Of a stretch of DNA of 64,000 bases, positions 6,522 to 40,833 are shown one piece after another. The notes beneath the pieces were generated by a model. The model ran no database searches and was not told where the DNA came from. It saw only the letters and a program-made list of their open reading frames with translations. Made by a program: the position numbers and the translations under genes. Numbering within the stretch: position 1 is the first letter of the stretch; each line of letters begins with the position of its first letter. Where the stretch lies: positions 13,589 to 77,588 of the forward strand of contig JAQVYB010000001.1 in assembly GCA_028708815.1 (NCBI GenBank), read 5' to 3'. This DNA comes from Kiritimatiellia bacterium. GTDB taxonomy: Bacteria; Verrucomicrobiota; Kiritimatiellia; RZYC01.

Positions 6522-6597
6522 CAATCCGTTGGGTGAGAGATGCTTTTATACACGATAGCGTTACTCAACGATGATGGCTACGCTCTATTCCAAATCA

Positions 6598-7938: not shown

Positions 7939-7942
7939 AAGG

Positions 7943-10900: not shown

Positions 10901-11464
10901 TTGTTCTTCCAGAATCAGCGCATTGGGTTCGATGATCATGCGCTGATTTCGTTTCATTCCGATGTGGGTGATGTGATTCTGGAAGGGTTCATAGAATTCT
11001 GTTTCGCCGTTGCGTGTGATTTTCAGGAAGGTTCTGAAGCCTTGGGTGGGGGTAAGCTGGTAGGCCCTGTTGGCGGAAAGGAACTCCATCATGGACTGAT
11101 GCTTGTCGCCTACGCCCGCGCTTGCAATGCATTGGCCGCGATTCACATAGAATGTCCACATGGGGATGCCGTGCATGCCGGCCACGCCGGGGAAAAAGCT
11201 GGAGAAGGGCTTGGCGTCATTGTATTGCTCGATGATGAACTCTCCGCCTGCGCCCAATTGATACGTGACTGACTTCTCCGACATAAACATCCTCCATGGA
11301 ACTGAATTATTTGCTGTTTTCATGACCCGGATGGCTTGCCATCCGCACGGCCTGGATTTGAAAAAATCGCGATCATAGTAAAACAAGAACTTCAAAATGT
11401 ATAGAATGGAGATTGGAAAAAGTCGCCTTCGGGCGGGTGGCGGCTGAAAATTATCTGTTTTCAA
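7943..11464 (-). CDS. Large (1173 aa) conserved protein of unknown function, cytoplasmic; possibly a glycoside hydrolase/phosphorylase-like alpha/alpha-barrel protein
   Basis: Uninterrupted 3.5 kb ORF with coding-like composition. No signal peptide. I do not recognise the family from sequence alone. Confidence 0.6.
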   Translation of the reverse strand: MKTDNFQPPPARRRLFPISILYILKFLFYYDRDFFKSRPCGWQAIRVMKTANNSVPWRMFMSEKSVTYQLGAGGEFIIEQYNDAKPFSSFFPGVAGMHGIPMWTFYVNRGQCIASAGVGDKHQSMMEFLSANRAYQLTPTQGFRTFLKITRNGETEFYEPFQNHITHIGMKRNQRMIIEPNALILEEQNSTLGLNFRVSYSPASEESFAALLRTVQIENTGKNPVQIEALDGLALMVPYGVDNENLKEMRYLVQSFVECVNLENNVPFFKGKVKQMDTPQVHRITRGNFYAAFTENRGKTKLVNPVVDPACVFGARQDLSYPENFLQTKGPFKPGAQRLENVLPCALAHVKLTAAPGRTGTFYAIAGHCSNRDMLNRLIPRIAQASFFAEQREIGKRVVEQLSQYNFICSNSPPFDYYCRQNFLDNTLRGGLPVTFSSKAGKKTTFHVYSRAHGDLERDYNSFFIDPTPYSQGNGAYRDINQNRRMDVLLNPNVGMNNILHFFNLNQLDGFNPLTVMPSSFTARKGKALSTLLKSCVPPGKTTRLETLVTSPFRPGDLCMKLQQEGVNLKTSTDTFLAELLPLCERSEETRYGHSYWSDHWHYSLDLIDNFLAVYPDKLRELLIETRQFTFYDNSHVVRPRADKYVLWDELPMQLEAVAQDPAKEKMIQSRNKDKHAVRTRHGMGDVYQTNLLAKLLTMITCKMASLDMAGVGIEMESERPNWYDALNGLPGMFGSSISETLELKRFVRFCRQALQRLNLEPEHEVILPVEVLEFLNGLDALLIKNLKNKSAEADFRYWDASASLKEIYRRSVLMGLDGAETGLKIKSLGAMLERFERKLDRAVAKAMDSKTGVIKTYFRTEILKHSLIHIRDKNGKRVVKTNAKGMPCFIPQKIRHRALPLFLEGPVHFLRVEGPSAQAQALVQQVRKSDLFDRKLKMFKVNADLSAEALEIGRCRTFARGWLENESIWMHMEYKYMLELLRGGHLKEFFTHFRNVLVPFQDPAVYGRSILENSSFIASSANPDSQIHGAGFFARLSGSTAEFAHMLSLMTVGPTPFRQDADGSLLFAPAPTLPAWLFTEKPTDKTLWKEERERPLSFEKNTFSFMFMGGTLITYSNPKRRDTFGAKAVKPVRFNVTTRGGVVKEFSGETLNTQTAQAIRQGDVASIEITLG

Positions 11465-11505
11465 AGCGGGGTCGATGAGCTACCATTCTCATTAAAGGAG
11501 AGGCC

Positions 11506-12654
11506 ATGCGCGCGGCGGAATGCACCTGCAGAGAGTTTCTGAATGGGAACATACAGTATGTTGTCCCTTCGTTTCAGCGTCCTTATCGCTGGAAAAAGGA
11601 GCGATGGCAGACGTTTCTGGAGGGGGTCTTGGATTTATGCACGAAGGAGAAGCAGGCGGAAATCTTTTTGGGGGCGATTGCAATCATGCCGATTGATTCA
11701 ACGCCCAAGGGGGTGCAGAAGTATCTTTTGGTGGATGGGCAGCAGCGTTTAATTACGGTGCTGGCCCTGCTGGCGGCGCTGCGGAACTGTGCGCGGGATG
11801 CCGGGTTGGAGCTGGCGGAACGGATCACGCGCGAGTGTTTGATCAACGAAGAGGAAGAATGGAATTACCGGTACAAACTGCTGCCGAAAGAGCCGAATCG
11901 AAAGGTTTTTTTTCATACTTTGGAGAATGAACCGCATCCCGAGGGCGAGCCGATGTTCGGGGCCACGGAGTTTTTCATGGAACAACTCACGCTTACGGAG
12001 CGCCCCGTGGATTATCACCAGCTCTATGATCTCCTGCTGCGCCATTTTATGATTGTGCGCGTGGTGTTGGACAAGGATGAGAATCCCTATCCGATCTTCA
12101 AGAGTCTGAACATGACCGATGATCCGGAGCCGGCGGTGGGGCTGGAGGAGTACCACCGCTTTGCCTCGGATCCGCGTGTTATGGCCCTGATTGCCGGAGG
12201 CGAGTCCCAGCAGTTGGAATTTAAGGAGGCGATTTCAACCTACACCACGGATACGCGCGACGCCGAGCGGCACGGCGCAGCGATTGTCCGGACGGTGGCC
12301 GCGTTCATGAACAGCTCGATTGGCGGGACGCTCCTGATCGGCGTAGCCGATGATGGCAAGGTGAGCGGAATCAACATGGAGTATGAGCGGGTGGACAAAG
12401 GCAAACCCAACTGGGACGGCTATCATCTGCATTTGCGCAACTTGCTGCGTTCGCGTATTTCCATTGAAAATCCCTTCAAGTATTACACCATCACCAAGCA
12501 CATGGTGGATGGAAGGGACATCTGCCGCATTACGGTCAAGCCATCTCCCGCACCGGTCTACATTGACAAGCACCTGTATGTGCGCTCAGGGAATCAAACC
12601 CTGGAGATGCGCGGGCCGGATTTGGTGGAGCATGTGCGTACGCGCTGGCCGTGA
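11506..12654 (+). CDS. DUF262 (GmrSD N-terminal / ParB-like nuclease-NTPase) domain fused to C-terminal Schlafen-like AlbA_2 domain; candidate defence protein
   Basis: N-terminus has YVVPSFQRPYRWKKERW and LLVDGQQRLITV (DGQQR motif of DUF262). C-terminal half has QQLEFKEAIS...AAFMNSSIGGTLLIGVADDGKVSGI (AlbA_2/Schlafen core). Strong RBS AAAGGAGAGG before the ATG. GC is slightly lower than in neighbouring genes. Confidence 0.8.
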   Translation: MRAAECTCREFLNGNIQYVVPSFQRPYRWKKERWQTFLEGVLDLCTKEKQAEIFLGAIAIMPIDSTPKGVQKYLLVDGQQRLITVLALLAALRNCARDAGLELAERITRECLINEEEEWNYRYKLLPKEPNRKVFFHTLENEPHPEGEPMFGATEFFMEQLTLTERPVDYHQLYDLLLRHFMIVRVVLDKDENPYPIFKSLNMTDDPEPAVGLEEYHRFASDPRVMALIAGGESQQLEFKEAISTYTTDTRDAERHGAAIVRTVAAFMNSSIGGTLLIGVADDGKVSGINMEYERVDKGKPNWDGYHLHLRNLLRSRISIENPFKYYTITKHMVDGRDICRITVKPSPAPVYIDKHLYVRSGNQTLEMRGPDLVEHVRTRWP

Positions 12655-12802
12655 TGCTGAAAAGAATGGTTCTCGGGCAGGGCGAAGCCTCCGGCAGAGC
12701 CGGTTGTTTGGCGGGAGGGCTGTCTTGTGTTTGCTCTGGTCTTAGAATTTTCTTTTCATTGGTTGCGGATTCGGGTAGCTCAGGTTGCCATGTGGAGCGA
12801 TT

Positions 12803-12887
12803 GGGCGAGTGGTGAAATTGGCAGACACGCCAGACTTAGGATCTGGTGCTTTACGGCTTGCGGGTTCGAGTCCCGCCTCGCCCACCA
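12803..12887 (+). tRNA. tRNA-Leu (anticodon TAG), 85 nt with long variable arm, CCA encoded
   Basis: Acceptor stem GGGCGAG/CTCGCCC, discriminator A then CCA. T-arm GCGGGTTCGAGTCCCGC. Anticodon stem-loop CCAGA-CTTAGGA-TCTGG gives anticodon TAG. Long variable arm is typical of Leu. Confidence 0.85.
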
Positions 12888-12911
12888 CGCTATACATGAT
12901 CGGATGTTGCG

Positions 12912-13253
12912 TTATCGAGTCTTGTAGGCCACTGTTCCGCCTATAGTCAGCGAGCAGGTGTCCACTTGCTCTTTGCCCACATCATACTTTCTGATGTCCG
13001 TTTGACGCAGGTATTCTCCGATGTGGTCCCATTCCACGGTATCCCCTTCGGCGCCTCCGGCATCCATGGCATATCGGGCAATGGCGCCTTCAATCTGTGT
13101 GCAGTTCGTCGCTTTACTGGTGCCCAGTGACTTTTCCCTGGCCTTCATGAAGGACGGGATTCCTATGGCAGCCAGGAGGCCAATGATCGCCACGACGATC
13201 ATGATCTCCACCAGGGTGAAGCCCTGGGGTTTCCTGTTGTTGGTTGAGTTCAT
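12912..13253 (-). CDS. Type IV pilin / T2SS pseudopilin-like protein with prepilin N-terminal cleavage/methylation domain (major pilin paralog 1)
   Basis: MNSTNNRKPQG|FTLVEIMIVVAIIGLLAAIGIPSF carries the PilD G|FTLxE signature. The N-terminal 25 residues of the mature part are identical to the paralog at 13444..13779. Confidence 0.85.
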   Translation of the reverse strand: MNSTNNRKPQGFTLVEIMIVVAIIGLLAAIGIPSFMKAREKSLGTSKATNCTQIEGAIARYAMDAGGAEGDTVEWDHIGEYLRQTDIRKYDVGKEQVDTCSLTIGGTVAYKTR

Positions 13254-13370
13254 TGTGGCGTTTCTTTTTCATGTTTTTATTTTTATTAAGTTCCACCTGG
13301 AGTCCTGAAGAAACTCGAGAATGAGAGGGGTATTCTTCAGTGGACCCCATGTGGGCAAGTTATTACTTGA

Positions 13371-13385
13371 GCAGAAACAATGCCA
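13371..13385 (-). promoter_or_regulatory. Possible sigma-54 promoter (TGGCAT-N5-CTGC) for pilin paralog 1
   Basis: Minus-strand sequence TGGCATTGTTTCTGC keeps the conserved -24 GG and -12 GC. It partly overlaps the A/T tract of the upstream terminator. Confidence 0.35.
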
Positions 13386-13414
13386 AAAAAAGCCCCCGGA
13401 TTTCTCCGGGGGCT
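13384..13414 (-). terminator. Rho-independent terminator downstream of pilin paralog 2
   Basis: Minus-strand hairpin GCCCCCGGA-GAAA-TCCGGGGGC followed by TTTTTTT. Confidence 0.7.
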
Positions 13415-13443
13415 GTGAATCCAGGTTATCCCTGTTTCAGGAC

Positions 13444-13779
13444 TTAATCATTATAGGTAACCGAACCGCCGATCGTAGCCGGGAAGTTAATGGTCTTCGT
13501 GGATACGGTGTAATCGGTCTGGTTTGTTTTCTTCAGGTAAGGTGCGACGTCGGCCCATGTGACGGCCACGGTGCTGTTCGTTGCGCCATTATCCAGAGCC
13601 CACTCCTGAATGGCATCTTCAATCTTGGCAATATTGGCTTCTTTCGTTGTGCCCAGAGCCTTGGTGCGGGCCTTCATGAAAGAAGGAATACCAATAGCGG
13701 CCAGCAGTCCAATAATGGCGACTACGATCATAATCTCGACCAACGTGAAACCAGCTTTGCTTTTTTCTGTCTTTTTCAT
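13444..13779 (-). CDS. Type IV pilin / pseudopilin-like protein (major pilin paralog 2)
   Basis: MKKTEKSKAG|FTLVEIMIVVAIIGLLAAIGIPSFMKAR. RBS AAAGGAG lies 9 nt upstream of the ATG. Confidence 0.88.
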   Translation of the reverse strand: MKKTEKSKAGFTLVEIMIVVAIIGLLAAIGIPSFMKARTKALGTTKEANIAKIEDAIQEWALDNGATNSTVAVTWADVAPYLKKTNQTDYTVSTKTINFPATIGGSVTYND

Positions 13780-13925
13780 TGTCCCATGCTCCTTTGATTT
13801 ATTTTCAGTATTTCTTTTTTATCGTTGTTCATCCTGCGGAAAGGCCCGCAGGCAACTTTGCGCCGGCAGTGAGCCTCTCCGCTCCCCGCCGATCTGCCGG
13901 ATTCCCGGAACAGATGTACTATTCA

Positions 13926-13940
13926 GCAAAAGACGTGCCA
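13926..13940 (-). promoter_or_regulatory. Sigma-54 (RpoN) promoter, perfect -24/-12 consensus TGGCAC-N5-TTGC, driving pilin paralog 2
   Basis: Minus strand reads TGGCACGTCTTTTGC, about 150 bp upstream of the pilin ATG. A sigma-54 activator gene (14280..15665) is adjacent. Confidence 0.75.
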
Positions 13941-14279
13941 AATCTGGATAACGCCTGCTGAACGGTTTGAATTATAGAGCGAATCCGAAAAGGAGCAAGA
14001 AAATAGAAGGGAATGAGTGGGTTGAGCTTCTCAAAAATAAGAATTAATCAACTATGAGAAAACAGGAGGGTGCCTGGGAAGAGACCCGCAGCCCTGCACG
14101 TTTTGAGTAGGGCGAGGCCTTCGCACGAGCCGGCGTTGGGCGATTGACTGGACGCGGGGGGCGGCTCACCGGGACCTGACGTCGCCCAAGGCTATGTCAG
14201 GCACGCAGGTTCGCCCTGTCTTGGTTCTGAGCGGAATCCTTGGCTCCGAACAGAATCATATTGTTGCGCAAGGGGCCAT

Positions 14280-15665
14280 TCAGGATTTGTCGGAGAGTTT
14301 GCGATAAAGGGTCGCCACGCTGATGTCCAGGGCCTGCGCCGCCTTTTCCTTGTCGCCATTGAGATTGTTCATGACATTGGAGAGGTATTCCTTTTCCTTG
14401 GAGCGGAGAAAGGCTTTCAGGGATTTGCCCTTGAACTTGGCGGCTTGACTGGAGGCGGCGGCGTGCGAGCCGCTTTCGCCGGCGGGCATTTCGCCCACGG
14501 ATTCAACGAGTTTGGGAGGCAGGGCGGAGCGGGTGATGGTATTGTTTTCCGCGAAGGCGAGGGCGTGCTGAATCACATTTTCCAGTTCGCGGACGTTCCC
14601 CGGCCAGGGGTGGCGTTCGAGAATGATTTCGGCTTCATGATCGATCGAGATGGTTGGCTGATCGGGACGGGCGCGCCGTTTCAGGAAGTGTTGAACGAGG
14701 GGCAGGATGTCCGTGACGCGTTCGCGCAGCGGGGGAATATCAATGGTAATGACGCTTAGACGATAGAAGAGATCTTCCCGGAAGCGCCCCTGTTCGATGA
14801 GGGATTCCAGCCGTTCGTTGGAAGCGGCAATGAGGCGCACGTCCACGGCGACATTCTGCGTGCCGCCGACCCGGCGTATCTGCATGTCTTGCAGGACGCG
14901 CAGCAGTTTCGACTGAATGGCGAGGGGCATGGCGCCGATTTCGTCGAGGAAGAGTGTTCCGCCGTGGGCGGATTCGAAGAGTCCCTCCTTGTTGGAGGTG
15001 GCGCCGGTGAAGGCGCCTTTGACGTGGCCGAACATTTCCGATTCGAGGAGGGGTTCGGGCAGTGCCGCGCAGTTGACGGCGATGAATTCCTCTTTTTTCC
15101 GGTTGCTGTATTGGTGCAGGGCTCGAGCGACCAGTTCTTTTCCGGTGCCGCTTTCTCCATAGATGAGGACCGTCGTGTCGGTTGGGGCCACGCGCTCAAT
15201 CATTTCGCACACCTGCTTCATGCCGTCGCTCTCCGACACGATGTTGTCGAGCCGGTTGGTTGCCATGAGGCGTTCTTTAAGGCCTTTGTTTTCGGCCAGT
15301 ACGTTGCCGTATTCCAGGGCACGCTGCACGGTGATTTGCAGTTCATCGAGTTTGAAGGGCTTGGTGATATAGTCGTAGGCGCCGCATTTCATGGCCTCGA
15401 CAGCCGTGGAGACGGTTCCGAAGGCGGTGAGCATGATGACCTGGGTCTCGGGGGATTTCTCGCGTGCGAAGCGCAGGACTTCCATACCGTTGACGGGTTC
15501 CATGTTGATGTCCGAAATCAGCAGGTCAAAGGTTTCTTTTTCCAGCAGGTGCATGGCCTCTTCGCCATTTTTTGCCGGTGATACGTCATAGCCGTTGCTG
15601 ATGAGAATTTTGTTGAGGATGTTGAGGATGACCGGTTCGTCATCCACCGTTAGAATACGTGCCAT
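14280..15665 (-). CDS. Sigma-54-dependent response regulator (NtrC/PilR family: REC + AAA+ sigma-54 activator + Fis-type HTH)
   Basis: REC N-terminus (ILTVDDEPVILNIL...DLLISDINMEPVNGMEVLR). Walker A GESGTGKELVARALH and GAFTGA-like ESEMFGHVKGAFTGA. C-terminal HTH AAQALDISVATLYRKL. Confidence 0.9.
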   Translation of the reverse strand: MARILTVDDEPVILNILNKILISNGYDVSPAKNGEEAMHLLEKETFDLLISDINMEPVNGMEVLRFAREKSPETQVIMLTAFGTVSTAVEAMKCGAYDYITKPFKLDELQITVQRALEYGNVLAENKGLKERLMATNRLDNIVSESDGMKQVCEMIERVAPTDTTVLIYGESGTGKELVARALHQYSNRKKEEFIAVNCAALPEPLLESEMFGHVKGAFTGATSNKEGLFESAHGGTLFLDEIGAMPLAIQSKLLRVLQDMQIRRVGGTQNVAVDVRLIAASNERLESLIEQGRFREDLFYRLSVITIDIPPLRERVTDILPLVQHFLKRRARPDQPTISIDHEAEIILERHPWPGNVRELENVIQHALAFAENNTITRSALPPKLVESVGEMPAGESGSHAAASSQAAKFKGKSLKAFLRSKEKEYLSNVMNNLNGDKEKAAQALDISVATLYRKLSDKS

Positions 15666-15681
15666 GAATACTCCTTCTCTG

Positions 15682-16803
15682 TTACATATTGATAATTTCG
15701 CTCATTTTAAAGATGGGCAGGAACATACAAATGACGATACTGCCGATCAGCAGCCCTACGAAAACCATGAGAAGCGGCTCGATCATGGAGGTGAGTCCGG
15801 CGACCATGGTTTCCACTTCGTCCTCGTAAAACTCGGCTGTTTTATCGAGCATTTCCTCGACTTTTCCTGTTTTTTCACCGGCGGCGAGCATGTGGATGAG
15901 CATGCGTGGGTAGTATTTGCTTTTCTGAAGGGCGGTGGAAAGGGGTTCGCCGCGTTCCACGGTGGCCTTGGCTTCGTTGAGTACCTTGCCGATAACGAGG
16001 TTTCCAGTGGCCAACGCGACGATGTCCAGGGCCTGAAGAATCGGTACGCCACTGTGCATGAGCTGGCTGAAGGTGGAGGAAAAGCGGCTGATGGCGAGCC
16101 CCTGGCTGAGTTTGCCGAGCAGCGGGAAGCGCAATTTCATTTCATCCACCATGTAGGCGCCTTTTTTTGTTTTTTTAAAGCGGATGAATCCATAGATCAG
16201 GCCCCCCAGTATGCCAATGGTGAGCAGGGCGTTGTTGCGTATGGCATTGCTGATGTCGAGGAGTGCCTGCGTGGGGCCGGGCAGTCCGGCGCCGAAATCG
16301 GAGAACATGCCGACAAACGTGGGCAAGACGAACACAATCAGGGCCGAGGCCAGGATGATGGCTGCCATCAAAACAATGATGGGATACATCATGGCGGATT
16401 TAACCTTGCGGCGCAGGCGTCCGCTGGCTTCCAGGAAGGTCGCCACGCGGGAGGCGGTTTCGGCCAGAATGCCGCCCATTTCTCCGGCCCGCATCATGTT
16501 GACGTAGAGGCCGTCGAAGATGCCGGGATAGGCCGCGAGGGCTTCGGAGTACATGGAGCCGCCTTCCACCCGCATGCGAACGGAGGAAACAATGGGGCGG
16601 AAGTTGACATCCTCGCTTTGTTCTTCGAGAGCCATCAGGCATTGCACGAGCGGCATGCCCGAACCGAGCATGGCGGAGAGCTGCCGTGTGAAGATGGGCA
16701 GGGCTTTCGTCCGTATCTTTCCGGCGCCACGGACTTTTAAACCCTTCTTCTTTTTTTTCTTTTTGGCATCCTGGGCCGCTTGGGTGAAATCTTTTGTGGC
16801 CAT
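15682..16803 (-). CDS. pilC: Type IV pilus / T2SS inner-membrane platform protein PilC/GspF family
   Basis: 373 aa, two GspF repeats with 3 TM segments. Sits between the PilB-like ATPase and the PilR-like regulator. Confidence 0.85.
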   Translation of the reverse strand: MATKDFTQAAQDAKKKKKKKGLKVRGAGKIRTKALPIFTRQLSAMLGSGMPLVQCLMALEEQSEDVNFRPIVSSVRMRVEGGSMYSEALAAYPGIFDGLYVNMMRAGEMGGILAETASRVATFLEASGRLRRKVKSAMMYPIIVLMAAIILASALIVFVLPTFVGMFSDFGAGLPGPTQALLDISNAIRNNALLTIGILGGLIYGFIRFKKTKKGAYMVDEMKLRFPLLGKLSQGLAISRFSSTFSQLMHSGVPILQALDIVALATGNLVIGKVLNEAKATVERGEPLSTALQKSKYYPRMLIHMLAAGEKTGKVEEMLDKTAEFYEDEVETMVAGLTSMIEPLLMVFVGLLIGSIVICMFLPIFKMSEIINM

Positions 16804-16806
16804 GGG

Positions 16807-18576
16807 TTACTCCGAGGTGGTGACGCGCAGAATTTCTTCGATGGTGGAGACGCCGGCCTCCGCCTGGGTCAGGCCGACATCGCGCAGGGTGGCCATGCCT
16901 TCCTCGATGGCCGCGTTGCGGATGACATTGGCATCGGTGCTTTCGAGAATGGTATGGCGGAGACGTTCGCTCAGGAGGAGAATTTCCATGAGGGCGCCGC
17001 GGCCTTTGTAGCCCATGTTGGCGCATTTGGGGCATCCCACGGCTTCATAGAACGAGGCCTCGCGGAACTTTTCGGGATCGAGGCGGTTCTTCCTCAGTGT
17101 TTCTTCCGGGAAGGCCGTGATTCTTTTGCAGGTGGGGCAGAGTTTGCGGTAGAGGCGCTGGGCCTGCGTCATGATCAGGGAGGAGGCGAGCAGGAAGGGC
17201 TCTATGCCCATGTAGGCGAGACGGGCTACCGCGCCGGCGGCGTCGTTGGTGTGCAGGGTGCTGAGCACGAGATGTCCGGTGAGAGCGGCTTGTACGGCGA
17301 TGGAGCCGGTCTCGTTGTCACGTATTTCTCCGATGAGCACGATGTCGGGGTCCTGACGCAGAATGGAGCGCAGTCCGGCGGCGAAAGTCAGGCCGACTTC
17401 CGCGTGGGTTTGGACCTGATTGATGCCGGGGAGCTGGTATTCAACGGGATCTTCCACGGTGATGATGTTCACATCCGGCTGGTTGAGTTCCTGCAGGGCG
17501 GAATAGAGGGTGGTTGTTTTTCCGCTGCCGGTGGGTCCGGTCACAAGCAGCATGCCGTGCGGCTGACTGATGGCAAACATGAGTTTTTCGTAGTCGGACT
17601 CGCGCAGGTGCAGGGCGGCCAGATTGGGGGCGAGGGAGGATTTGTCCAGGGTACGCATGACGATTTTTTCGCCGTGCACGGTGGGCAGAATGCTGACGCG
17701 CAGATCCACTTCTTTCCCCAGTGCCTTGATCTTGAAGCGTCCATCCTGCGGAACGCGGCGCTCGGCAATGTTGAGGTTGGACATGATCTTGATGCGCGAG
17801 ATGATGGCGTTCTGCAGGCTCTTGGGCGGCTTGGGATTTTCGTAGAGAATGCCGTCTACGCGGTAGCGCAGGCGGATGGATTTTTCCATCGGTTCGATGT
17901 GAATATCGCTGGCCTTTTTGCGCAGGGCTTCGATCAGAATGGAGTTCACAATGCGAATGACGGGGGCATCCTCGGCGCTTTCCATCATTTCATCGAGACT
18001 GGTATCTTCGGCGGCGTTTTCGCCGACTTCAATTTCGTCGTCGTTGGCCATGTCTTTCAGAATGTCTTCCAAGGCCTGCGCGGGTTCCTTGGTGAAACTG
18101 TCGAGTACCCGGTTGATTTCTTTTTCGGTGGCGACGAGGATGACCACGTCGAGTCCGGTTTGTGCCTGAACGTTTTCGATGTCGGGCACGTTGAACGGGT
18201 CACAGGTGGCCACGGTAAGCATCTTTCCGATGCGTGCGATAGGGAGCATCCCGAATTGCTTCCAGGTGGCTTTTGGAAGCAGTTCCATCAGGACATCGTG
18301 CGGGGTGAAGTCGTCGAGGGTAATGGGGCGGATATCCAGATATTCGCCCATGCTGAGAATCAGGTCGTATTCCGTGATCAGTTGTTTATCCAGCAGGATT
18401 TTTTCGAGAGCGACCCCGCTTTGCTCGGACTCGGCCTGTACGGTGTTCAGGACGTGGGCCTCCAGAGACGTCCGTTTCAAGATCGTCTTAACCAGTTGGT
18501 TATGAGAAGCAGTAATCATGTTTTTCGAAATCCGCCCCGTCTTGCTGTGTTTTCTGAACCCGATGCGAGAAAACAT
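16807..18576 (-). CDS. pilB: Type IV pilus assembly / T2SS ATPase PilB/GspE
   Basis: N-terminal T2SSE_N domain. Walker A VTGPTGSGKTTTLYSAL. Walker B region LIGEIRD. C-terminal tetracysteine CPTCKR...CPKC. Confidence 0.9.
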   Translation of the reverse strand: MFSRIGFRKHSKTGRISKNMITASHNQLVKTILKRTSLEAHVLNTVQAESEQSGVALEKILLDKQLITEYDLILSMGEYLDIRPITLDDFTPHDVLMELLPKATWKQFGMLPIARIGKMLTVATCDPFNVPDIENVQAQTGLDVVILVATEKEINRVLDSFTKEPAQALEDILKDMANDDEIEVGENAAEDTSLDEMMESAEDAPVIRIVNSILIEALRKKASDIHIEPMEKSIRLRYRVDGILYENPKPPKSLQNAIISRIKIMSNLNIAERRVPQDGRFKIKALGKEVDLRVSILPTVHGEKIVMRTLDKSSLAPNLAALHLRESDYEKLMFAISQPHGMLLVTGPTGSGKTTTLYSALQELNQPDVNIITVEDPVEYQLPGINQVQTHAEVGLTFAAGLRSILRQDPDIVLIGEIRDNETGSIAVQAALTGHLVLSTLHTNDAAGAVARLAYMGIEPFLLASSLIMTQAQRLYRKLCPTCKRITAFPEETLRKNRLDPEKFREASFYEAVGCPKCANMGYKGRGALMEILLLSERLRHTILESTDANVIRNAAIEEGMATLRDVGLTQAEAGVSTIEEILRVTTSE

Positions 18577-18672
18577 GTATTACACACGATTCTCAAATTT
18601 ATCAAACATAATTCTCAAAAATGAGACGCCTTTTTTGTTGAGTTCGCTTTTCTGTCCTTCTATAAGCAGGCC

Positions 18673-19539
18673 ATGAGTGAGCAGGAAAGAGCCGGTGATT
18701 CGAGTCAGGCCGATGGCGCCTTGCGCGAGACCATCACCATGTTCGAGCAGATCCTGGAGGTCATGCCGGACGACGAAATGGCCATCCGCACCTTGTACGA
18801 CAGTTATAGGCAGGTCGGAGAAACGTCAAAGGCGTTTTCCATGCTCCAGCGTCTGACGGAAATTGTCCTTGCCGAGGATAACCATGATCTTTCGGGTTTT
18901 TTGTTGGATCAGTTCAGTCAGTATGAAGACCTGATCGATGATTCCTGTGTGCCGTTGATTGAGCGGCTTCAGCAGTTTGCGGATACCGCGCCGGTCCTTT
19001 CGGAAGCGGAGACGGCGGAGACGGTGGAGTCGGCGGGGGAAGCACCTGCGCTGCGCGAAGTGAAAATCGGCGAGGAGGACCGCAAGGATGCCGAGGTGGC
19101 CCTGGTGTGGAATCTCTATCAGGCCGGCATGATCACCGAAGACGATTACACCATGATTTTAAAAGATTTGACGGAGATGGTTTCGAAGCAGGCGATGGTG
19201 CCCAGCACGGTCATGCACGTGCTCTTCGACCGCAGCTATTCCCACTTTTCCTCCGTGGTGGCTTACATGGCCAAACAGTCGGGCTCGCCGTTCATTTCGC
19301 TGGCGAATTTTGATGTACCCGGGGAACTGGTGACACTGCTTCCCGCGGAATTTGTCTATCACAATGCCGCGATTGTATTTAAGAAGATTCAGGAGGATCT
19401 GCTGGTGGCCATGCTTAATCCCTTCGACCGCAAGCTCAAGGATGCCGTCGAGGAGATGACCGGTCGAACCTGCCACTATTACCTGATCACGGCAGAAGAA
19501 TACGATGGCCTTCTTAAGAAGATGAAAGAGGCGCTCTAA
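18673..19539 (+). CDS. Protein with C-terminal T2SSE_N (GspE-N / MshEN-like) domain, divergently transcribed from pilB; possible c-di-GMP-binding regulator of the pilus ATPase
   Basis: C-terminal 140 aa (SSVVAYMAKQSGSPFISLANFDVPGELVTLLPAEFVYHNAAIVFKKIQEDLLVAMLNPFD) resembles the GspE N-terminal domain. The acidic N-terminal half is unique. Confidence 0.6.
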   Translation: MSEQERAGDSSQADGALRETITMFEQILEVMPDDEMAIRTLYDSYRQVGETSKAFSMLQRLTEIVLAEDNHDLSGFLLDQFSQYEDLIDDSCVPLIERLQQFADTAPVLSEAETAETVESAGEAPALREVKIGEEDRKDAEVALVWNLYQAGMITEDDYTMILKDLTEMVSKQAMVPSTVMHVLFDRSYSHFSSVVAYMAKQSGSPFISLANFDVPGELVTLLPAEFVYHNAAIVFKKIQEDLLVAMLNPFDRKLKDAVEEMTGRTCHYYLITAEEYDGLLKKMKEAL

Positions 19540-19611
19540 CGGCGTGTCGGGCTTTGGCCCGCCATCCTGCCGGTGAACCACCGCGGATGCGCGGTGGCTC
19601 TGTGTTTGGAA

Positions 19612-20535
19612 TCAAAACATTTCTCCGCCCACGCGCAGGGTACGGATTTCGCCCTGGAATTCCAGTACAATGCCGTCGCCATGGACGGATATGAGCTTGA
19701 TGCCCTGGACGCGCTGCCCGCAGGAAATAATCTGTCCGTCGATGATGGCGAGGCCATCTGCCGACTTGTTTTTGGAGGCCATCACGCCGGTCAGGCGTAT
19801 TCTGGGCCAGGCGATCGGGGCGTCCTGTGCGCCGGGCTCGGTGGTTTTGGTTTCCGCATGTGTCGCGGTGAAGGTTTTTTGCTCAATCGGCGCATTTTTC
19901 GGCAGGGATTTTACGGTGTTCGGTTGTTGTTTCAGGGCCGGCTTGGCGGTGGGTTCCGGGGCGGGTTTTTGTGGGGTGGCGGTGGGTGCCGGCTGCAATG
20001 GTTTTGTTTCGGGCGGCGTTTCGGGCGGGGCGTCCATGAGTGTAGCAGCGGTTTCCCGGTCGGCACGCTCGTTGGCGGTGATTTCTTTTGTTTTTTGAAT
20101 GAGTTTATAGGCGAGGGAGGGGTCCCGCTTGGGTTCCTGTTCCGGTTCGCCGGCTTTTTCGTTTTGTGTTTCGAGTTGGGCGGTCGGTGTGGCGGTGGGT
20201 GTGGGTGCCGGTGCGGGCTTGTCCTTGGTCTTTATTCCGGCAAAGAGTCCGGCTTCCAGGGCGTAGTATCCGGCCACGGCCAGGCCTCCGAGCACCAGTA
20301 GAATGATCAGCCAGACGATGATTGTTTTCACGGCGTTTTGTTTCGGGGGCTGCGGCGGTTCTTCGCCGCGCTGAAAGGCGGGCGGCAGAACGGAGGGGGG
20401 TGCGGGGGGAGGAGGGCTCGGCGGAACGCCGCCGGTGGCTTCGGGGAGATCGGGCGTTTCGGCGGTGGGTTCCGAAGGCGCCCTGCTTTGCTTTTCCTCT
20501 GCTTTTCGTTTCAGTGCTTCCTGAACAAGACTCAT
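19612..20535 (-). CDS. GspB/ExeB-like general secretion pathway protein (Pro-rich, single TM, C-terminal GspB-type domain)
   Basis: Immediately downstream of the ExeA-like AAA ATPase. TM segment IIVWLIILLVLGGLAVAGYYAL. PAPTPTATP-rich linker. C-terminus LAIIDGQIISCGQRVQGIKLISVHGDGIVLEFQGEIRTL. Confidence 0.6.
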   Translation of the reverse strand: MSLVQEALKRKAEEKQSRAPSEPTAETPDLPEATGGVPPSPPPPAPPSVLPPAFQRGEEPPQPPKQNAVKTIIVWLIILLVLGGLAVAGYYALEAGLFAGIKTKDKPAPAPTPTATPTAQLETQNEKAGEPEQEPKRDPSLAYKLIQKTKEITANERADRETAATLMDAPPETPPETKPLQPAPTATPQKPAPEPTAKPALKQQPNTVKSLPKNAPIEQKTFTATHAETKTTEPGAQDAPIAWPRIRLTGVMASKNKSADGLAIIDGQIISCGQRVQGIKLISVHGDGIVLEFQGEIRTLRVGGEMF

Positions 20536-20592
20536 GGACGCCCTTCCTTCTATGTCTAAATTAAGGCCCGATACCGAGTGGTATGATGTTGA

Positions 20593-21456
20593 TCAATGTA
20601 GCATGGTCTCCATTTCCCGCACAGCCTTTTTTACTTCCTGCGGGGAGATTGTATGAGTTCCGGCCACGTACCCGGCCAGGAGGGAGCGGTCGGCAATCAT
20701 ATTGATAACGCGCGGGATGCCTCCGCTTTTTTTCAGGATGAGACGTATTGCGCCTTCGTCAAAATGGGTGGGGTAGCCTCCGCCGGCCACCTGCATGCGG
20801 AAACGCAGGTACTGTTTGACATCTTCGAGTTCCAGTGGGCGCAGGTTGCAGTGTACCATGATACGCTGGCGGAGCTGGCGCCACTCCGGGGCACGCAGGC
20901 GCTTGGCCAGTTCGGGCTGCCCGATCAGAATGAGTTGCATGAGCTTGTGCTGATCCGTTTCAAGATTGGAAAGCAGGCGGACCTGTTCCATGACCTTGGC
21001 TTCGAGATCCTGCGCTTCATCAATCACAATGGCGACGTTTTCGTTGCGTGCGTCGCAGGCCAGGAGAAATTCATTGAGCTGTTCGATGTAGGCGAGGCGG
21101 TCGCGCCCGCGCGGTTTGAGGCCGAGGTCAACCAGGATGGCGCGCAGCAGTTGCGATTCGGTGAGCGAGGGATTGAGCACCAGGGCCGTACGGGTGGGGG
21201 GAGGCAGGCTTGAAAGGACGGCCCGGCAAACGGTGGTTTTTCCGCAGCCCACTTCGCCGGTGAGTGTGATGAAGCCTTTGCGTTGTTCAATGCCGTAGCG
21301 AAGGGAGTCAAAGGCCTCGCGATGCTCCTGGGTGAAGAAGAGAAAACGCGGGTCTGGCGTGACGTTGAAGGGTGGTTCGTTGAGGTTGTAAAAAGCCAGA
21401 TACATACGGGTCTCTTTCGGATGAGGATTAGGGTCCGGTGGATTGTTTCTGTTCAA
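20593..21456 (-). CDS. gspA: ExeA/GspA-like AAA ATPase (general secretion pathway protein A)
   Basis: Walker A GEVGCGKTTVCRAVL. Walker B VAIVIDEAQDL. ExeA family architecture of about 290 aa. Confidence 0.8.
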   Translation of the reverse strand: MNRNNPPDPNPHPKETRMYLAFYNLNEPPFNVTPDPRFLFFTQEHREAFDSLRYGIEQRKGFITLTGEVGCGKTTVCRAVLSSLPPPTRTALVLNPSLTESQLLRAILVDLGLKPRGRDRLAYIEQLNEFLLACDARNENVAIVIDEAQDLEAKVMEQVRLLSNLETDQHKLMQLILIGQPELAKRLRAPEWRQLRQRIMVHCNLRPLELEDVKQYLRFRMQVAGGGYPTHFDEGAIRLILKKSGGIPRVINMIADRSLLAGYVAGTHTISPQEVKKAVREMETMLH

Positions 21457-22069
21457 ACGAATTTCCGCTCAGCAGAAATCCGGCCTGTGGTGTGGTGTTT
21501 GTCTGGAGTTCCGGCGCGGTCTCGGGCCGGGTGAAGGAAATCAGTTTCAGGTTTGGCGCGAGCCGACTGATTGGGCGGAGGGCTGAAAGGGCCTGTTGAA
21601 ACCGGAGCACCAGAATTTCCGCCTCCGGGTGAATGACGAGCCCCTGAATGTCGAGGCTTTGATCCCAGGGGGAGAGAGGGCTGGTTGGGAATTTATCGGG
21701 GGCGGAGATGAAGGTGAGGCGTTGCAGTTGAATGCATTCGGGCGTTTCCTGTGCAATGAGCTGAAGGGGTTTCTGAAGGCGTGGGCTTTCCTGTTTCCAT
21801 CGGGCAAGCGCTTCGGCGGTTTGGCGGTTGTGGCGTAAGGCCTGATCCTTTGCGGTGATGCGGTGGAGGGTGGGCGCCCATTTTTCCAACCGCTGTTGAT
21901 ATTGCCTGATTGTTGCCTGCCTGGCCAAGCGGGCTTGCAGTCGGTGTATGCTTAGAGCAAAGGCGAGGATGATCACGGCGGAGACGGCCAATATCAGGGT
22001 CGTGCGTGGGAGAACCGCCCGGTGCTTCCGGGGTCGTGGCGCTGATGTTGCTGTTGAATTCTTGCGCAT
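21428..22069 (-). CDS. Hypothetical single-pass membrane protein, first gene of the gspA/gspB operon (possibly PilN/GspL/M-like)
   Basis: 213 aa. One TM (LILAVSAVIILAFAL) followed by a predicted periplasmic region. Overlaps the gspA start by 29 nt. Confidence 0.5.
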   Translation of the reverse strand: MRKNSTATSAPRPRKHRAVLPRTTLILAVSAVIILAFALSIHRLQARLARQATIRQYQQRLEKWAPTLHRITAKDQALRHNRQTAEALARWKQESPRLQKPLQLIAQETPECIQLQRLTFISAPDKFPTSPLSPWDQSLDIQGLVIHPEAEILVLRFQQALSALRPISRLAPNLKLISFTRPETAPELQTNTTPQAGFLLSGNSFEQKQSTGP

Positions 22070-22261
22070 GGTTGGCTAATGTAAGGGCAAAAGGTTCGGA
22101 AGGGAAGCTCCAATAGCAGGGTGATTATTTGGGATAAGCGTTGTGACTTTTGGAGGAGAAAGGGTAGAAAAAGAAAGAGCAATGTGACGTATCGTGCCGA
22201 CATGGTACGCATTGTGCTGGTAATAGCATGGGGCAGAATCTTCTGTCCGGGAGAGCACGGC

Positions 22262-22690
22262 ATGCGCGGATTATTCCATAAAAAGGAGCGGCAACAGGGC
22301 CGCCGGGGGTTCACTCTGGTGGAGGTGGTGATTGGTATCACCTTGATGGCCATGGTGTTGTTTGCGATGATTGGCGGCCTGCTTTCGGCCAACAGATTGA
22401 GTGCTTCGGCTTCGCAGCACTATGCCGCTTTTCAGCATGCACGTGCCCGGATTGAGCAGATGCGGGGAACGAATTATTCGGCCCTGACCACGAATGATTT
22501 TCCGGCGGGGCAGGTTGAGCTGGGCTATATCAACGGCTTGCAGCGATTGCCGGTTTACGGCTATTTGTCCAACTCGGTGGCCTCGTATTCGTCGCCCGAT
22601 CGCAAGGTGGTGGACGTTTCCGTGACGTGGAGTTTCCGCGGACGTGGGCGGACCCAGGAGGTGCGTGGTGTCATTTATGATAAAAAATAG
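22262..22690 (+). CDS. Minor pilin / pseudopilin with prepilin-type N-terminal cleavage/methylation domain
   Basis: MRGLFHKKERQQGRRG|FTLVEVVIGITLMAMVLF. Internal Met start chosen; the ORF-track start is 22121. Confidence 0.75.
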   Translation: MRGLFHKKERQQGRRGFTLVEVVIGITLMAMVLFAMIGGLLSANRLSASASQHYAAFQHARARIEQMRGTNYSALTTNDFPAGQVELGYINGLQRLPVYGYLSNSVASYSSPDRKVVDVSVTWSFRGRGRTQEVRGVIYDKK

Positions 22691-23285
22691 CCGAACGATC
22701 CATCAGGGGTCGGATGGAAAGGGGGCGAAGGCCGCCCCTTCGAGCGGCTTTACGCTGATTGAAATTATCATTGCCATGGCTCTCTTTTTCGGGTTTATCG
22801 GGGTGATTACCTCGACCTATCTCAATACGTTGAAGGGGACGCATTCGGGGCTCGCTCAAATGAACTATACCACCCAGGCGCGGTTGAGCGGGCAAAAGAT
22901 CGCGCGCTATATTGAGAGCTGTAAGTTTTTCAATTGTGTTTCCTCGACGGAGCTGTCGTTGTTTTCTCCGAATCCGGTCAGCGGGGTGCTGGAGCAGAGC
23001 CGCCTGCGTTATATTCAAAGCGGGAGTGATGTGAGCACGTATCAAATCTGTCATGAAAAGCTGAACACATATGGGTGTGTGACGGAGACCAACCGTCTGG
23101 CGAGCTATGTCACGGCGATCAGCAATCAGCCGATTTTCAGCAAGCGGAGCAAAGTGGTGTATGTGAGTTACCATATTGGTGATCCGGCGGGTTCTGAGTT
23201 GGCGACGGGCAGTGGCCCAGGCTACCAGGGGCAGGAAGTCCGGTTCTATGTGACTCCCCGAAATGTGCAAACCTGGTTCGACTAA
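22677..23285 (+). CDS. Minor pilin / pseudopilin with prepilin-type N-terminal domain
   Basis: MIKNSRTIHQGSDGKGAKAAPSSG|FTLIEIIIAMALFFGFIGV. Overlaps the preceding pseudopilin gene by 14 nt. Confidence 0.75.
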   Translation: MIKNSRTIHQGSDGKGAKAAPSSGFTLIEIIIAMALFFGFIGVITSTYLNTLKGTHSGLAQMNYTTQARLSGQKIARYIESCKFFNCVSSTELSLFSPNPVSGVLEQSRLRYIQSGSDVSTYQICHEKLNTYGCVTETNRLASYVTAISNQPIFSKRSKVVYVSYHIGDPAGSELATGSGPGYQGQEVRFYVTPRNVQTWFD

Positions 23286-23296
23286 AGGAGCGGCTG

Positions 23297-25180
23297 ATGA
23301 GGAATCATTCTTTCAGACAAGCAACGTTACGCCGTAGCGGCTCGACGGTGATCTTTGCCCTGATCATGATCTTCATTGCTGCCGGGACGCTGACGGTCTA
23401 TATGCGTTACACGATTCAGAATGCTCATATGACGCGACGGGTGATTGATACGCAGAAGGCCCGCATGGTGGCGGAGGCCGGCCTCGAATATGCCGAGTTG
23501 AAACTGAAGGAAAAAATCTTTCAGTATTCACTGGGGCTCCCTTTTCGCAGTCAGATGCAGGCGGTGGTCAATGCCATTCCGACCCCGATGTCTCCCGATC
23601 CGACGTATCAGTACATGACGCCGACCGGCGGCAGTGCATTCAAAATAACCGTGGAAGGGGACGTGCTGTATGATCGGCTCATCGCGGATGGGACCGCCTG
23701 CCGGGGATTGCGGGGCGATGTACAGTACTTCACGATTCGTTCCGGCGCCTACAATCCCTCGTCGGGTGCGGGGAGTGTGTTCAGATTGAAGCTGCAGGCT
23801 GTGGGGGTTTATCTGATCCGCTATGCGCTCTTTTATCAGGATGACCTGGAAATCTGGCCGGGCCCGGATATGTACATCACGGGCCCGACCCATGCCAACT
23901 CGGATATGTATATCGGCTGTAATGCCTCGCTGATTTTTTCGGACCGGGTTTGTTCCGCAGGCAATATTTACAATTTCGGGAAGGACGGTCGAACCGGCGC
24001 CGGCAATGTGCGCATTGTGGATGGCAACCAGGTTCCGCAGGCCATGAACCGCGGGAGTTACCGCCTCGACAGTACGTATGCCAACTGGATCAATCAGTCG
24101 TTGAACCTTTGGGATGCCAACGTCCTCTCCCAGGAGCACGGCATTCAAACGTTGCGCCCACCCGTGGATGCCGACAGCCAGACCAATCTGCATGATTTGA
24201 TCGAACGCCCGCTGACCACCAACTCGGCGCATTATTCCATAGCAACCGAAGCCGAAAAGTTTGCCAACAAGGCGACGATTTTCATTCACATTGATTCCCA
24301 TAATAATATCTGGGCCACCAACCGAGTCAAAACAGGTACGAACAGCTGGAGTTCGGCCGACATCAGCACCAATTTTCAGGTTGCTTACCCCTATGTGAAC
24401 GGCTCCATCAATGGAACCCCGTCGTTCTTGAAAACCAACGGGTATTATGTCACTTCCAATGGCTGTATCGGCCTGGATGTTTCCAATTTCTACGATGATC
24501 GCGAAAACAGCTACATGGCGCCGGTGGATATCTATCTGGATGAGTTTCTGCCCATCATCACGAACAACGCCAATCCGGACTTCAACTTCGGCACGAACGA
24601 CTACAGCGGGTTGATTTACGTCACGCGGGACCCCCCCGCTTCCGGCAGCGCCATTCCGTGTGTCCGTCTTCGCAACGGAAAAGAGATGGCTACTGACCTC
24701 TCCGTGGTGACGGACCTTCCGCTCTACGTGGAGGGGAATTTCAATTCCATCAATACAAAGGCCTCGCTGGTGGCGGGTGACGCCGTGACGCTGCTCTCCT
24801 CCGATTGGCAGGATGCACGTACGGGAGCCTACCGGCTCAATCAGCGCCGCGCCGTGAATACCGCGTTTTTCACCATTATCATGACCGGCAACACACCCAC
24901 TATCGGGAGCAGTTACAACGGCGGCGTGGAAAACGTGTTGCGCTTTTTGGAAGACTGGGGCGGGATCACGACCTACTATCGAGGATCCATCATTGATTTA
25001 TGGTACAGCGAAATTGCCGCGACCCGCTGGAATGACGGGTCCGGCGGCTCGTATTATTCCGCCCCGAGGCGTGACTGGGGGTATGATGAAATGTACCGCA
25101 CCAACTGCCCGCCCGGCATGACGCGCGTGTTCGGAATGGAAGAACTCAACTGGGAACAGGTGAGCTGGGACGTCTTCTGA
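23297..25180 (+). CDS. Large pilus-associated protein (PilX/PilY-like?) with N-terminal hydrophobic anchor
   Basis: 627 aa. N-terminal TM VIFALIMIFIAAGTLTVYM. Directly follows the two pseudopilin genes on the same strand. Function inferred from context only. Confidence 0.5.
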   Translation: MRNHSFRQATLRRSGSTVIFALIMIFIAAGTLTVYMRYTIQNAHMTRRVIDTQKARMVAEAGLEYAELKLKEKIFQYSLGLPFRSQMQAVVNAIPTPMSPDPTYQYMTPTGGSAFKITVEGDVLYDRLIADGTACRGLRGDVQYFTIRSGAYNPSSGAGSVFRLKLQAVGVYLIRYALFYQDDLEIWPGPDMYITGPTHANSDMYIGCNASLIFSDRVCSAGNIYNFGKDGRTGAGNVRIVDGNQVPQAMNRGSYRLDSTYANWINQSLNLWDANVLSQEHGIQTLRPPVDADSQTNLHDLIERPLTTNSAHYSIATEAEKFANKATIFIHIDSHNNIWATNRVKTGTNSWSSADISTNFQVAYPYVNGSINGTPSFLKTNGYYVTSNGCIGLDVSNFYDDRENSYMAPVDIYLDEFLPIITNNANPDFNFGTNDYSGLIYVTRDPPASGSAIPCVRLRNGKEMATDLSVVTDLPLYVEGNFNSINTKASLVAGDAVTLLSSDWQDARTGAYRLNQRRAVNTAFFTIIMTGNTPTIGSSYNGGVENVLRFLEDWGGITTYYRGSIIDLWYSEIAATRWNDGSGGSYYSAPRRDWGYDEMYRTNCPPGMTRVFGMEELNWEQVSWDVF

Positions 25181-40660: not shown

Positions 40661-40833
40661 GCGGACGGCGGCGCATCGGGTAGGGTGAATGCCTCCGGCT
40701 GAGCCGTGGAGGTTGGCTCACCAGAAGGGATTGCATGACCGTCAACGACGGCTCACCGGGACGGTTCGCCCTACCAACGTCCGCTCGGCGAGCGGTCGGC
40801 CACTTGCATACGAAATATTGAAAACGGATTGCT

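Follow-up and report, generated by a model that had tools for sequence, protein, structure and literature searches.

In Proteobacteria, type IV pili and the ways in which they are controlled are well understood; to our knowledge they are almost unstudied in the Planctomycetes-Verrucomicrobia-Chlamydiae (PVC) group. A pilus-type locus in a 64-kb stretch of Kiritimatiellales DNA (hereafter the window) raises the questions of which machine it encodes, how its pilin genes are controlled, and what is done by an uncharacterised 288-aa protein encoded divergently from pilB. We read the region as the motor-and-regulation half of a type IVa-like pilus cluster, in which an NtrC-family activator would act with sigma-54 on the pilin genes and the 288-aa protein would modulate PilB; we place the probability of this reading at roughly 0.65. 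The cluster is a version, particular to this lineage, of the classical PilB-PilC-(PilS)-PilR-PilA arrangement, and its most interesting element is the 288-aa protein, a member of an uncharacterised, order-wide family that combines a tetratricopeptide repeat (TPR)-like domain with a GSPII domain and is tied to pilB.

A first-pass annotation made from the sequence had described a type IV pilus or type II secretion system (T2SS)-type locus, and this description, together with its gene list and open reading frame (ORF) coordinates, was confirmed throughout by ORF listing and by Pfam and NCBIfam scans (Table 1). On the minus strand the order is pilB, pilC, the NtrC-family activator, a gap of ~500 nt, pilin A, a terminator and pilin B, beyond which a tRNA-Leu lies on the opposite strand. 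The 288-aa gene is divergent from pilB, and beyond it are minus-strand genes for a single-transmembrane (TM) protein, a GspA-like protein and a GspB-like protein (22069-19612), followed by a plus-strand minor-pilin operon (22121-25180). Related loci used for comparison are given as L-numbers (L001, L003, L004 and others), and contig JAQUJH010000006.1 of GCA_028681075.1 is 99.67% identical to the window at the DNA level.

ATPase, platform protein, NtrC-type regulator and a pilin with a -24/-12 promoter follow one another in the same order in Myxococcus xanthus, Geobacter sulfurreducens and Pseudomonas aeruginosa, whose clusters run pilB-(pilT)-pilC-pilS-pilR-pilA with PilS/PilR and an RpoN-dependent pilA, and a pilin class III signal peptide with F1 and E5 is shared as well. 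Unlike these classical type IVa pilus (T4aP) clusters, the window block has no pilT and no PilS (the PilS of relatives lacks the catalytic ATP-binding domain), contains two pilin paralogues each with its own sigma-54 promoter, carries an extra divergent TPR-GSPII gene, and has its pilMNOPQ unlinked. The PilR/sigma-54 pilin switch would now extend to Kiritimatiellales, where its promoters and a leader hairpin are conserved and a candidate activator site is present, and two departures from the classical system stand out: a widespread uncharacterised TPR-GSPII protein tied to pilB, and a PilS that is without its ATP-binding domain or gone entirely.

Sigma-54 promoters, pilin paralogues and an orphan activator

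The sigma-54 promoter TGGCAC-N5-TTGC noted in the first pass is real, exact and conserved in position. The exact sequence occurs once in the 64 kb, at 13940-13926 (-), ~147 nt upstream of the pilin A ATG at 13779, and TTGGCAC...TGC does not vary when aligned with L004 and L001. Among 32 related loci, 28 have a GG-N10-GC site with no more than two mismatches in the 250 nt that precede the first pilin, where the chance expectation is 0.03 per window (nominal binomial P ~5e-38, a value inflated because the loci are related; their spacers are otherwise diverged). The pilin B promoter has a counterpart in L004, TGGCATATTTTCTGCT, that is conserved inside an otherwise diverged spacer, and the promoter of the minor-pilin operon has homologues in L003 (TGGTACGTATTCTGCT) and L004 (TGGCACATATTCTGCT). 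The window holds seven such sigma-54-type sites in total, four of them inside the pilus locus. Sigma-54/NtrC-type control of the pilin gene is thus supported by promoter sequence and its conservation. A one-mismatch sigma-54 match at 22037 (+) is not conserved in L003 or L004 and was taken as chance.

Upstream of the pilin A promoter lies an inverted repeat, TTCTCA-N21-TGAGAA, that occurs only here in the window (shuffle mean 0.17) and is a candidate activator-binding site. Of 29 loci, 26 carry the TTCTCA/TGAGAA hexamer in the 260 nt upstream of -24 (background 0.12; P ~4e-21), and in one clade it takes the form of a perfect palindrome, TGAGAATTCTCA. Directly after the promoter, at the predicted 5' end of the pilin A mRNA, a block conserved in L004 and L001 folds as a hairpin. 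Leaders of the Pontiella clade (L018-L070) carry an analogous stem-loop, GUCUG...[UGAG-GYGAG-CUCA]...CAGAC, which is 95% paired and shows compensatory UA-to-CG changes as well as G-U changes of the U-A-to-U-G kind. Pili of C. difficile use a cyclic di-GMP (c-di-GMP) riboswitch; a c-di-GMP or other riboswitch in the pilin leader was rejected here, as an Rfam scan of 12600-14400 returned the tRNA and sub-threshold noise only.

The two tandem pilins are old paralogues. Pilins A and B are identical from Gly-1 to Arg28, a stretch of 29 residues of which 28 are mature; the identical mature N-terminus noted in the first pass is therefore real and longer than the 25 residues given there. The accompanying statement that the two proteins then diverge completely did not hold, as they share 52% identity and 66% positives over 105 aa (BLASTP, E 2e-35). 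Twenty-nine consecutive identical residues at the processing site and alpha-1 N-terminus could suggest that the genes arose by recent duplication, as had been proposed, or by gene conversion, with fast antigenic diversification afterwards. Within that stretch, however, 19 of 27 degenerate codons differ synonymously (20/87 nt), the C-terminal parts are still clearly homologous, L004 holds both paralogues, each with its own promoter, and tandem pilin copies are common across Kiritimatiellales. The codon differences indicate that the N-terminal identity is kept by protein-level selection on the assembly helix and not by recent duplication or conversion; by this measure the pilin duplication is old, and we regard recent duplication and the antigenic diversification tied to it as hardly credible. 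A short conserved block with an upstream AUG, AAUAAAAACAUGAAAA (13254-13275, -), precedes pilin B; this AUG is in frame with the pilin in L004 and out of frame (19 nt) in the window. The Shine-Dalgarno sequence AAGGAG precedes pilin A, and none was seen for either pilin B AUG.

The activator matches Response_reg (4.8e-31), Sigma54_activat (1.3e-73) and HTH_8 in Pfam. Its best NCBIfam matches are AtoC and NtrC, both below cut-off, in libraries that hold no PilR-specific model. In translation D8/D9, D52, T80, K102 and the GAFTGA loop are all intact, and the protein therefore looks phosphorylation-dependent. Only 16 nt separate the pilC stop from the activator start. The view that this receiver-bearing NtrC-family activator has no linked kinase was borne out, with no histidine kinase detected in the window by Pfam on scanned ORFs of at least 200 aa or by tblastn with the PilS-like and kinase proteins of relatives.

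Nor does a PilS gene lie in the same operon just outside the region first annotated, and comparison with relatives points to a lineage-specific loss. Of 40 related loci, 32 place a PilS-like gene of 414-448 aa between pilC and the activator gene. Its product carries HisKA (32/32), 6TM_PilS (30/32) and PAS (29/32) domains and never HATPase_c (0/32), and its H-box, HEIRTP, keeps the HExxT motif, which from general two-component knowledge we take to be of the phosphatase type. Such a gene would not fit at this place in the window, L001, L004, L069 or L072, and the activator is thus an orphan because the lineage lost its PilS-like partner. Since the PilS-like protein of relatives lacks HATPase_c, the ancestral partner was probably unable to autophosphorylate, and the phosphodonor is likely to be unlinked throughout Kiritimatiellales.

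We propose that pilB, pilC and the activator form one operon, and that the phosphorylated activator would bind the candidate upstream element and open the sigma-54 holoenzyme at three promoters, those of each pilin paralogue and of the minor-pilin operon. The two old paralogues would in this way be transcribed independently. The ancestral membrane partner, with six TM segments, a PAS domain and a dimerization and histidine phosphotransfer (DHp) domain, would already have been without an ATP-binding domain, as in relatives, before it was lost in the lineage of the window; with that partner lost, phosphorylation of the activator would have to come from an unlinked donor.

In L001, which also lacks the PilS-like gene, the 288-aa gene is followed (6284-14131, -) by genes for a REC-HisKA-HATPase protein, a CHASE2 hybrid kinase with Hpt, and FecR-like and TPR proteins; this set could serve as a substitute route for signals to the activator in that lineage. 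In L074 (5596-6993), the deposited NCBI copy of this genome, the activator is called as two pieces (396 and 65 aa), and in the window it is one intact 461-aa ORF; L074 and the window differ by 42 substitutions and 2 indels over 16.8 kb.

The TPR-GSPII protein beside pilB

The first-pass annotation had described a stand-alone MshEN protein divergent from pilB. The protein is indeed not an ATPase and is encoded divergently, and its sole Pfam match is MshEN (residues 204-284, E 3.5e-12); it is more than a lone MshEN domain, as a TPR-like domain is present besides the full MshEN/GSPII fold. Its AlphaFold2 model (predicted local distance difference test score, pLDDT, 90) contains a TPR-like helical repeat (4-105), a disordered segment (106-133) and a complete GSPII/MshEN fold (134-288). 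Foldseek matched the model to PilF GSPII-A (TM-score 0.75), to MshEN (0.60-0.66), to the Xanthomonas PilB-N/PilZ complex (0.60) and to c-di-GMP-bound GSPII-B, with 9G1W, 8PDK, 5HTL and 7LKM as the matched PDB entries. The best of these is Thermus thermophilus PilF GSPII-A (9G1W; Foldseek E 4e-6, phmmer 5e-6), which is covalently part of an ATPase there, whereas here the domain is on a separate polypeptide and fused to a TPR-like module. The same four-helix bundle and alpha/beta fold (Pfam PF05157) is found in the Vibrio cholerae c-di-GMP receptor MshEN (5HTL), from which the 288-aa protein differs in not being joined to an ATPase and in its added N-terminal TPR-like domain.

The protein is 100% identical to a protein of a Kiritimatiellae metagenome-assembled genome and belongs to a large family. 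Homologues of ~270-300 aa form at least 199 clusters at 90% identity, and an exhaustive profile search recovered at least 142 clusters at 50% identity (E<1e-30), nearly all full length; where annotated, they are called hypothetical or 'GspE/PulE/PilB domain-containing'. The possibility that the gene is a truncated recent copy of pilB was rejected, given only 26% identity over 74 aa to the N-domain of the adjacent PilB and the full-length clusters just described. By its sequence, the GSPII domain is best taken as an old paralogue of the PilB N-domain and not a fragment of it.

The gene is carried by 70 Kiritimatiellales species genomes and is divergent from or adjoins pilB in 61 of 69 informative genomes, at identities down to ~29%. 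This adjacency suggests a pilus-motor accessory. Gene order could also have been inherited with no function in the pilus, as the 288-aa gene sits among unrelated housekeeping genes in 8 genomes and, lying on the opposite strand from pilB, is not co-transcribed with it. Against such passive inheritance, adjacency is kept although identity falls to ~29-35% and the surrounding genes change, by loss of the PilS-like gene or insertion of a GspA/B module, and the only recognisable domain of the protein is otherwise found at the N-terminus of pilus and secretion ATPases. We consider a protein unrelated to the pilus improbable.

It had also been proposed that the protein is a c-di-GMP receptor, which would relay the level of the second messenger to the PilB ATPase. 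We scored the family with the strict and relaxed 24-residue motifs of Wang et al. 2016 (PMC5013675), the MshEN motif being two tandem copies of RLGxx(L)(V/I)xxG(I/F)(L/V)xxxxLxxxLxxQ placed ~5 residues apart (maximum tandem score 22), with control sequences read from PDB alignments. None of 113 family members contained even one full relaxed 24-residue motif. The best tandem score of the family had a median of 14/22, the same as shuffled sequence (14.7), whereas the controls scored 22 (VcMshE), 21 (Geobacter PilB), 20 (PilF GSPII-B and -C) and 19 (PilF GSPII-A); known binders thus reach 20-22, and PilF GSPII-A is not a c-di-GMP binder (PMC12002112). The Arg, Gly and Gln positions of the motif are replaced in the family, the turn Gly of motif 2 being an invariant Arg, and both motifs are degenerate in comparison with those of MshEN. 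PilB itself has 15/22 on the motif at its N-terminus, and the full motif is absent from PilB in all 62 Kiritimatiellales orthologues examined.

A receptor role is nevertheless suggested by the complete MshEN/GSPII fold of the model, including its N-terminal four-helix sub-domain, and by the adjoining pilB in most genomes. Family-specific invariant residues occur in both domains (MFEQILEVMPDD; Y159, D165, D186-R187), and the polar residues Y159, D165, D186 and R187 in the four-helix region could make up a site for some ligand. Some MshEN proteins, among them FrgA and PA3740, are not ATPases, and an imperfect motif can at times bind (PMC5013675). FrgA (M. xanthus) and PA3740 (P. aeruginosa) combine an MshEN-type domain with uncharacterised domains in proteins linked to surface motility, and what they share with the 288-aa protein is this type of domain; PA3740 has the LxxxLxxQ binding motif, in contrast to the 288-aa family with no complete motif (PMC5013675). 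A survey of c-di-GMP proteins in Leptospira offers no precedent for stand-alone MshEN proteins. With motif scores at the shuffled level, the receptor proposal seems to us improbable, and a Pfam MshEN match alone does not predict c-di-GMP binding.

The N-domains of PilB and PilF dock on PilM and on cofactors such as PilZ (PMC11656802, PMC12002112), the PilB N1D-PilM contacts having been inferred from T2SS homologues (PMC11656802). Given this docking, the fold and synteny of the 288-aa protein suggest a protein-protein adaptor or modulator of PilB engagement, and with it an accessory of the pilus motor. Small cytoplasmic proteins that act on the extension ATPase, PilZ/FimX and CpiA (PMC11656802), offer a parallel to this predicted role, although their folds are unrelated to that of the 288-aa protein; Xanthomonas PilZ binds the PilB N-terminal domain in 7LKM, one of the structural matches above. 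A review of PilB cofactors describes no TPR-GSPII cofactor (PMC11656802).

In the mechanism we propose, the GSPII domain would make protein contacts through the kind of face with which the N-domain of PilB engages PilM, PilZ or the platform, the TPR domain would hold a second partner, and the protein would modulate or scaffold PilB engagement rather than sense c-di-GMP. More tentatively, the locus may represent a kind of pilus-motor control not described before, with a free-standing PilB-N paralogue plus TPR that gates or scaffolds the docking of PilB on PilM/PilC, or that binds another small ligand through the invariant Tyr/Asp/Asp-Arg, and with a PilR whose PilS partner is phosphatase-only in relatives and absent here; we hold this broader idea as a possibility, less probable than its opposite.

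Pilus or type II secretion system

A PilB-type ATPase that carries a GSPII domain at its N-terminus is encoded side by side with a PilC platform protein, both found in T4aP, and four genes of the locus match N_methyl in Pfam, in keeping with class III signal peptides and N-methylation. PilB matches T2SSE (1e-136) and, at residues 81-165, MshEN in Pfam. Its NCBIfam scores are 631 bits for type_IV_pilB and 612 bits for GspE, both just under cut-off. The best NCBIfam match of PilC is Myxococcus-type PilC, below its cut-off. Pilin B gives PilA, GspG and ComGC matches in NCBIfam at the N-terminus only, and in the AlphaFold2 model of pilin A (pLDDT 84) the alpha-1 helix is long (residues 13-64) and the head is very small. 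Against PDB this model had no significant match (best, N. gonorrhoeae pilin, E 0.13), the fold search did not discriminate a T4 pilin from a GspG-like pseudopilin, and the pilins alone thus do not settle pilus versus pseudopilus.

The locus could instead encode a T2SS-like pseudopilus that secretes the many glycoside hydrolases of the organism. The short pilins with a GspG-like N-terminus, public annotations of relatives as 'type II secretion system protein', the nearly equal GspE match of PilB, the presence of GspA/GspB/GspC-like genes, the lack of a nearby pilT, and the glycoside hydrolase family 5 (GH5)/carbohydrate-binding module (CBM) enzymes in the window all point in this direction. The gene order of Tichowtungia aerotolerans argues otherwise. 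There the same pilA-pilR-pilS'-pilC-pilB block with the 288-aa homologue is followed contiguously by minor pilins, a large protein, PilM (PF11104), three small genes of PilN/O/P size and a secretin, which is the T4aP alignment module and not GspL/M/C. The best matches of PilC are to T4P PilC models, the GspC-like matches fall below cut-off, and a sigma-54 pilin promoter together with a PilS-like/PilR-like pair is what classical T4aP loci show, as known from Pseudomonas, Myxococcus and Geobacter. We judge a secretion pseudopilus unlikely, if less so than the receptor and inherited-order proposals, and prefer the type IVa-like pilus.

As annotated in the first pass, the window contains no secretin or prepilin peptidase (Pfam on scanned ORFs of at least 200 aa; tblastn with the secretin of relatives). 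PilM/N/O/P and PilQ are likewise absent from the 64 kb by Pfam and tblastn, and neither pilD nor pilT was found there among the ORFs scanned with Pfam. The secretin, pilMNOP, pilD, rpoN and any pilT would have to lie elsewhere in the genome.

Several points weigh against the pilus reading and its regulatory and motor components. With pilM/N/O/P/Q, pilD and pilT all outside the window, completeness of the machine is not demonstrable from 64 kb, and the same holds for the presence of sigma-54, as rpoN is not within the window. The pilins are very short with a head lacking significant structural matches, so that a T2SS-like pseudopilus is compatible with them, and PilB is nearly as good a match to GspE as to type_IV_pilB. 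Because the loci counted belong to related genomes, the P values make them look more independent than they are. The predicted role of the 288-aa protein is drawn only from synteny and fold, and 8 genomes have the gene away from pilB. Proteins whose sites are less conserved also came up in a c-di-GMP screen (Wang et al., PMC5013675), and judged by sequence the missing canonical motif would lower the chance of c-di-GMP binding rather than exclude it.

Further features and neighbouring genes

Table 1. Features of the pilus locus, in window coordinates unless a related locus is named.
Feature	Position	Strand	Description
Pilin paralogue B	12912-13253	-	113 aa; class III signal peptide, cleavage G/FTLVEIM, Glu5, two Cys; Pfam N_methyl E 1.4e-8
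Sigma-54-type promoter of pilin B	13370-13385	-	TGGCATTGTTTCTGCT; GG-N10-GC kept
Intrinsic terminator after pilin A	13391-13414	-	10-bp G+C-rich stem, then T run
Pilin paralogue A	13444-13779	-	111 aa; cleavage G/FTLVEIM, Glu5, no Cys; Pfam N_methyl
Hairpin at predicted 5' end of pilin A mRNA	13892-13915	-	AUCUG-UU-CCGG-GAAU-CCGG-CAGAU, directly after sigma-54 promoter
Sigma-54 promoter of pilin A	13925-13940	-	TGGCACGTCTTTTGCT; exact -24/-12 consensus match
Candidate upstream activator site	14028-14060		Inverted repeat TTCTCA-N21-TGAGAA, 88-120 nt upstream of -24 element
PilR-like NtrC-family sigma-54 activator	14280-15665	-	461 aa; receiver, AAA+ (GAFTGA), Fis-type helix-turn-helix
PilS-like gene, examples	L006:5535-6836; L073:5669-6889	-	Absent at window 15665-15682
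PilC/GspF platform protein	15682-16803	-	373 aa; Pfam T2SSF 9e-59
PilB/GspE extension ATPase	16807-18576	-	589-aa ORF; probable start 18519, giving 570 aa
TPR-like + MshEN/GSPII-fold protein	18673-19539	+	288 aa, divergent from pilB; uncharacterised Kiritimatiellales-wide family
GspB/GspC-HR-like protein	19612-20535	-	307 aa; one TM, Pro-rich linker, small C-terminal beta domain
GspA/ExeA/MshM-like AAA ATPase	20593-21456	-	Probable start 21405, giving 270 aa; Pfam AAA_22 7e-29
Single-TM protein	21428-22069	-	Probable start 21991; first gene of GspA/B-like operon; conserved in L003, L004
Minor pilin	22121-22690	+	Probable start 22262; G/FTLVEV; Pfam N_methyl 4e-6
Sigma-54-type promoter of minor-pilin operon	22203-22218	+	TGGTACGCATTGTGCT
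Minor pilin	22644-23285	+	Probable start 22677; G/FTLIEI; Pfam N_methyl 6e-5
Large protein	23297-25180	+	627 aa; pilin-like hydrophobic N-terminus without Glu5; last gene of minor-pilin operon

A GspA/GspB-like module is inserted beside the 288-aa gene in the window, L003, L004 and L069. Its ATPase (270-287 aa) has AAA_22 only, with an NCBIfam TIGR03015 score of 283 bits that is below cut-off, and the GspB/GspC-like partner matches Pfam T2SSC (5e-6) and T2SSB (4e-4) weakly, each slightly below its cut-off, and NCBIfam GspC (8e-6). With ExeA/ExeB (GspA/GspB) and MshM the module shares a short AAA_22 ATPase and, after it, a Pro-rich protein that has one TM segment and a GspB/GspC-like domain at its C-terminus; in contrast to ExeA/ExeB, neither a TM segment nor a peptidoglycan-binding domain is present in this ATPase, and the specific models all score below cut-off. 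The pair would probably assist secretin assembly. The single-TM protein encoded by the first gene of the module has no Pfam or NCBIfam match.

In the minor-pilin operon, the position of the sigma-54-type promoter indicates that the first minor pilin begins at 22262 and not at the upstream GTG; the probable start of the second minor pilin, like those of PilB and the GspA-like ATPase, follows a gene call. The 627-aa protein has no Pfam match and a short C-terminal match to an HpsA pseudopilin-like protein (1e-13), and it is conserved in L003 and L004. Downstream of this operon the window continues with housekeeping genes (Ldh_2 and glycerol kinase).

Kiritimatiellales are abundant degraders of sulfated and complex polysaccharides. 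Around the locus, at 123-3014 and 38303-46823, are alpha-amylase/CBM48, an amylo-alpha-1,6-glucosidase-type gene and two GH5 cellulase-family genes with CBM6/CBM35, and these flanking polysaccharide-degradation genes are consistent with that lifestyle. A gene for a ComEC competence channel (Pfam Competence and DUF4131) lies at 4074-6521 (+), ~6 kb away from the pilins. The interval 7943-11464 (-) is taken up by a 1173-aa ORF without a family match, and between this ORF and the tRNA-Leu and pilin genes, at 11506-12654 (+), is a gene for a GmrSD_N plus Schlafen/AlbA_2 protein with the architecture of a defence-type nuclease, which is also present in L004.

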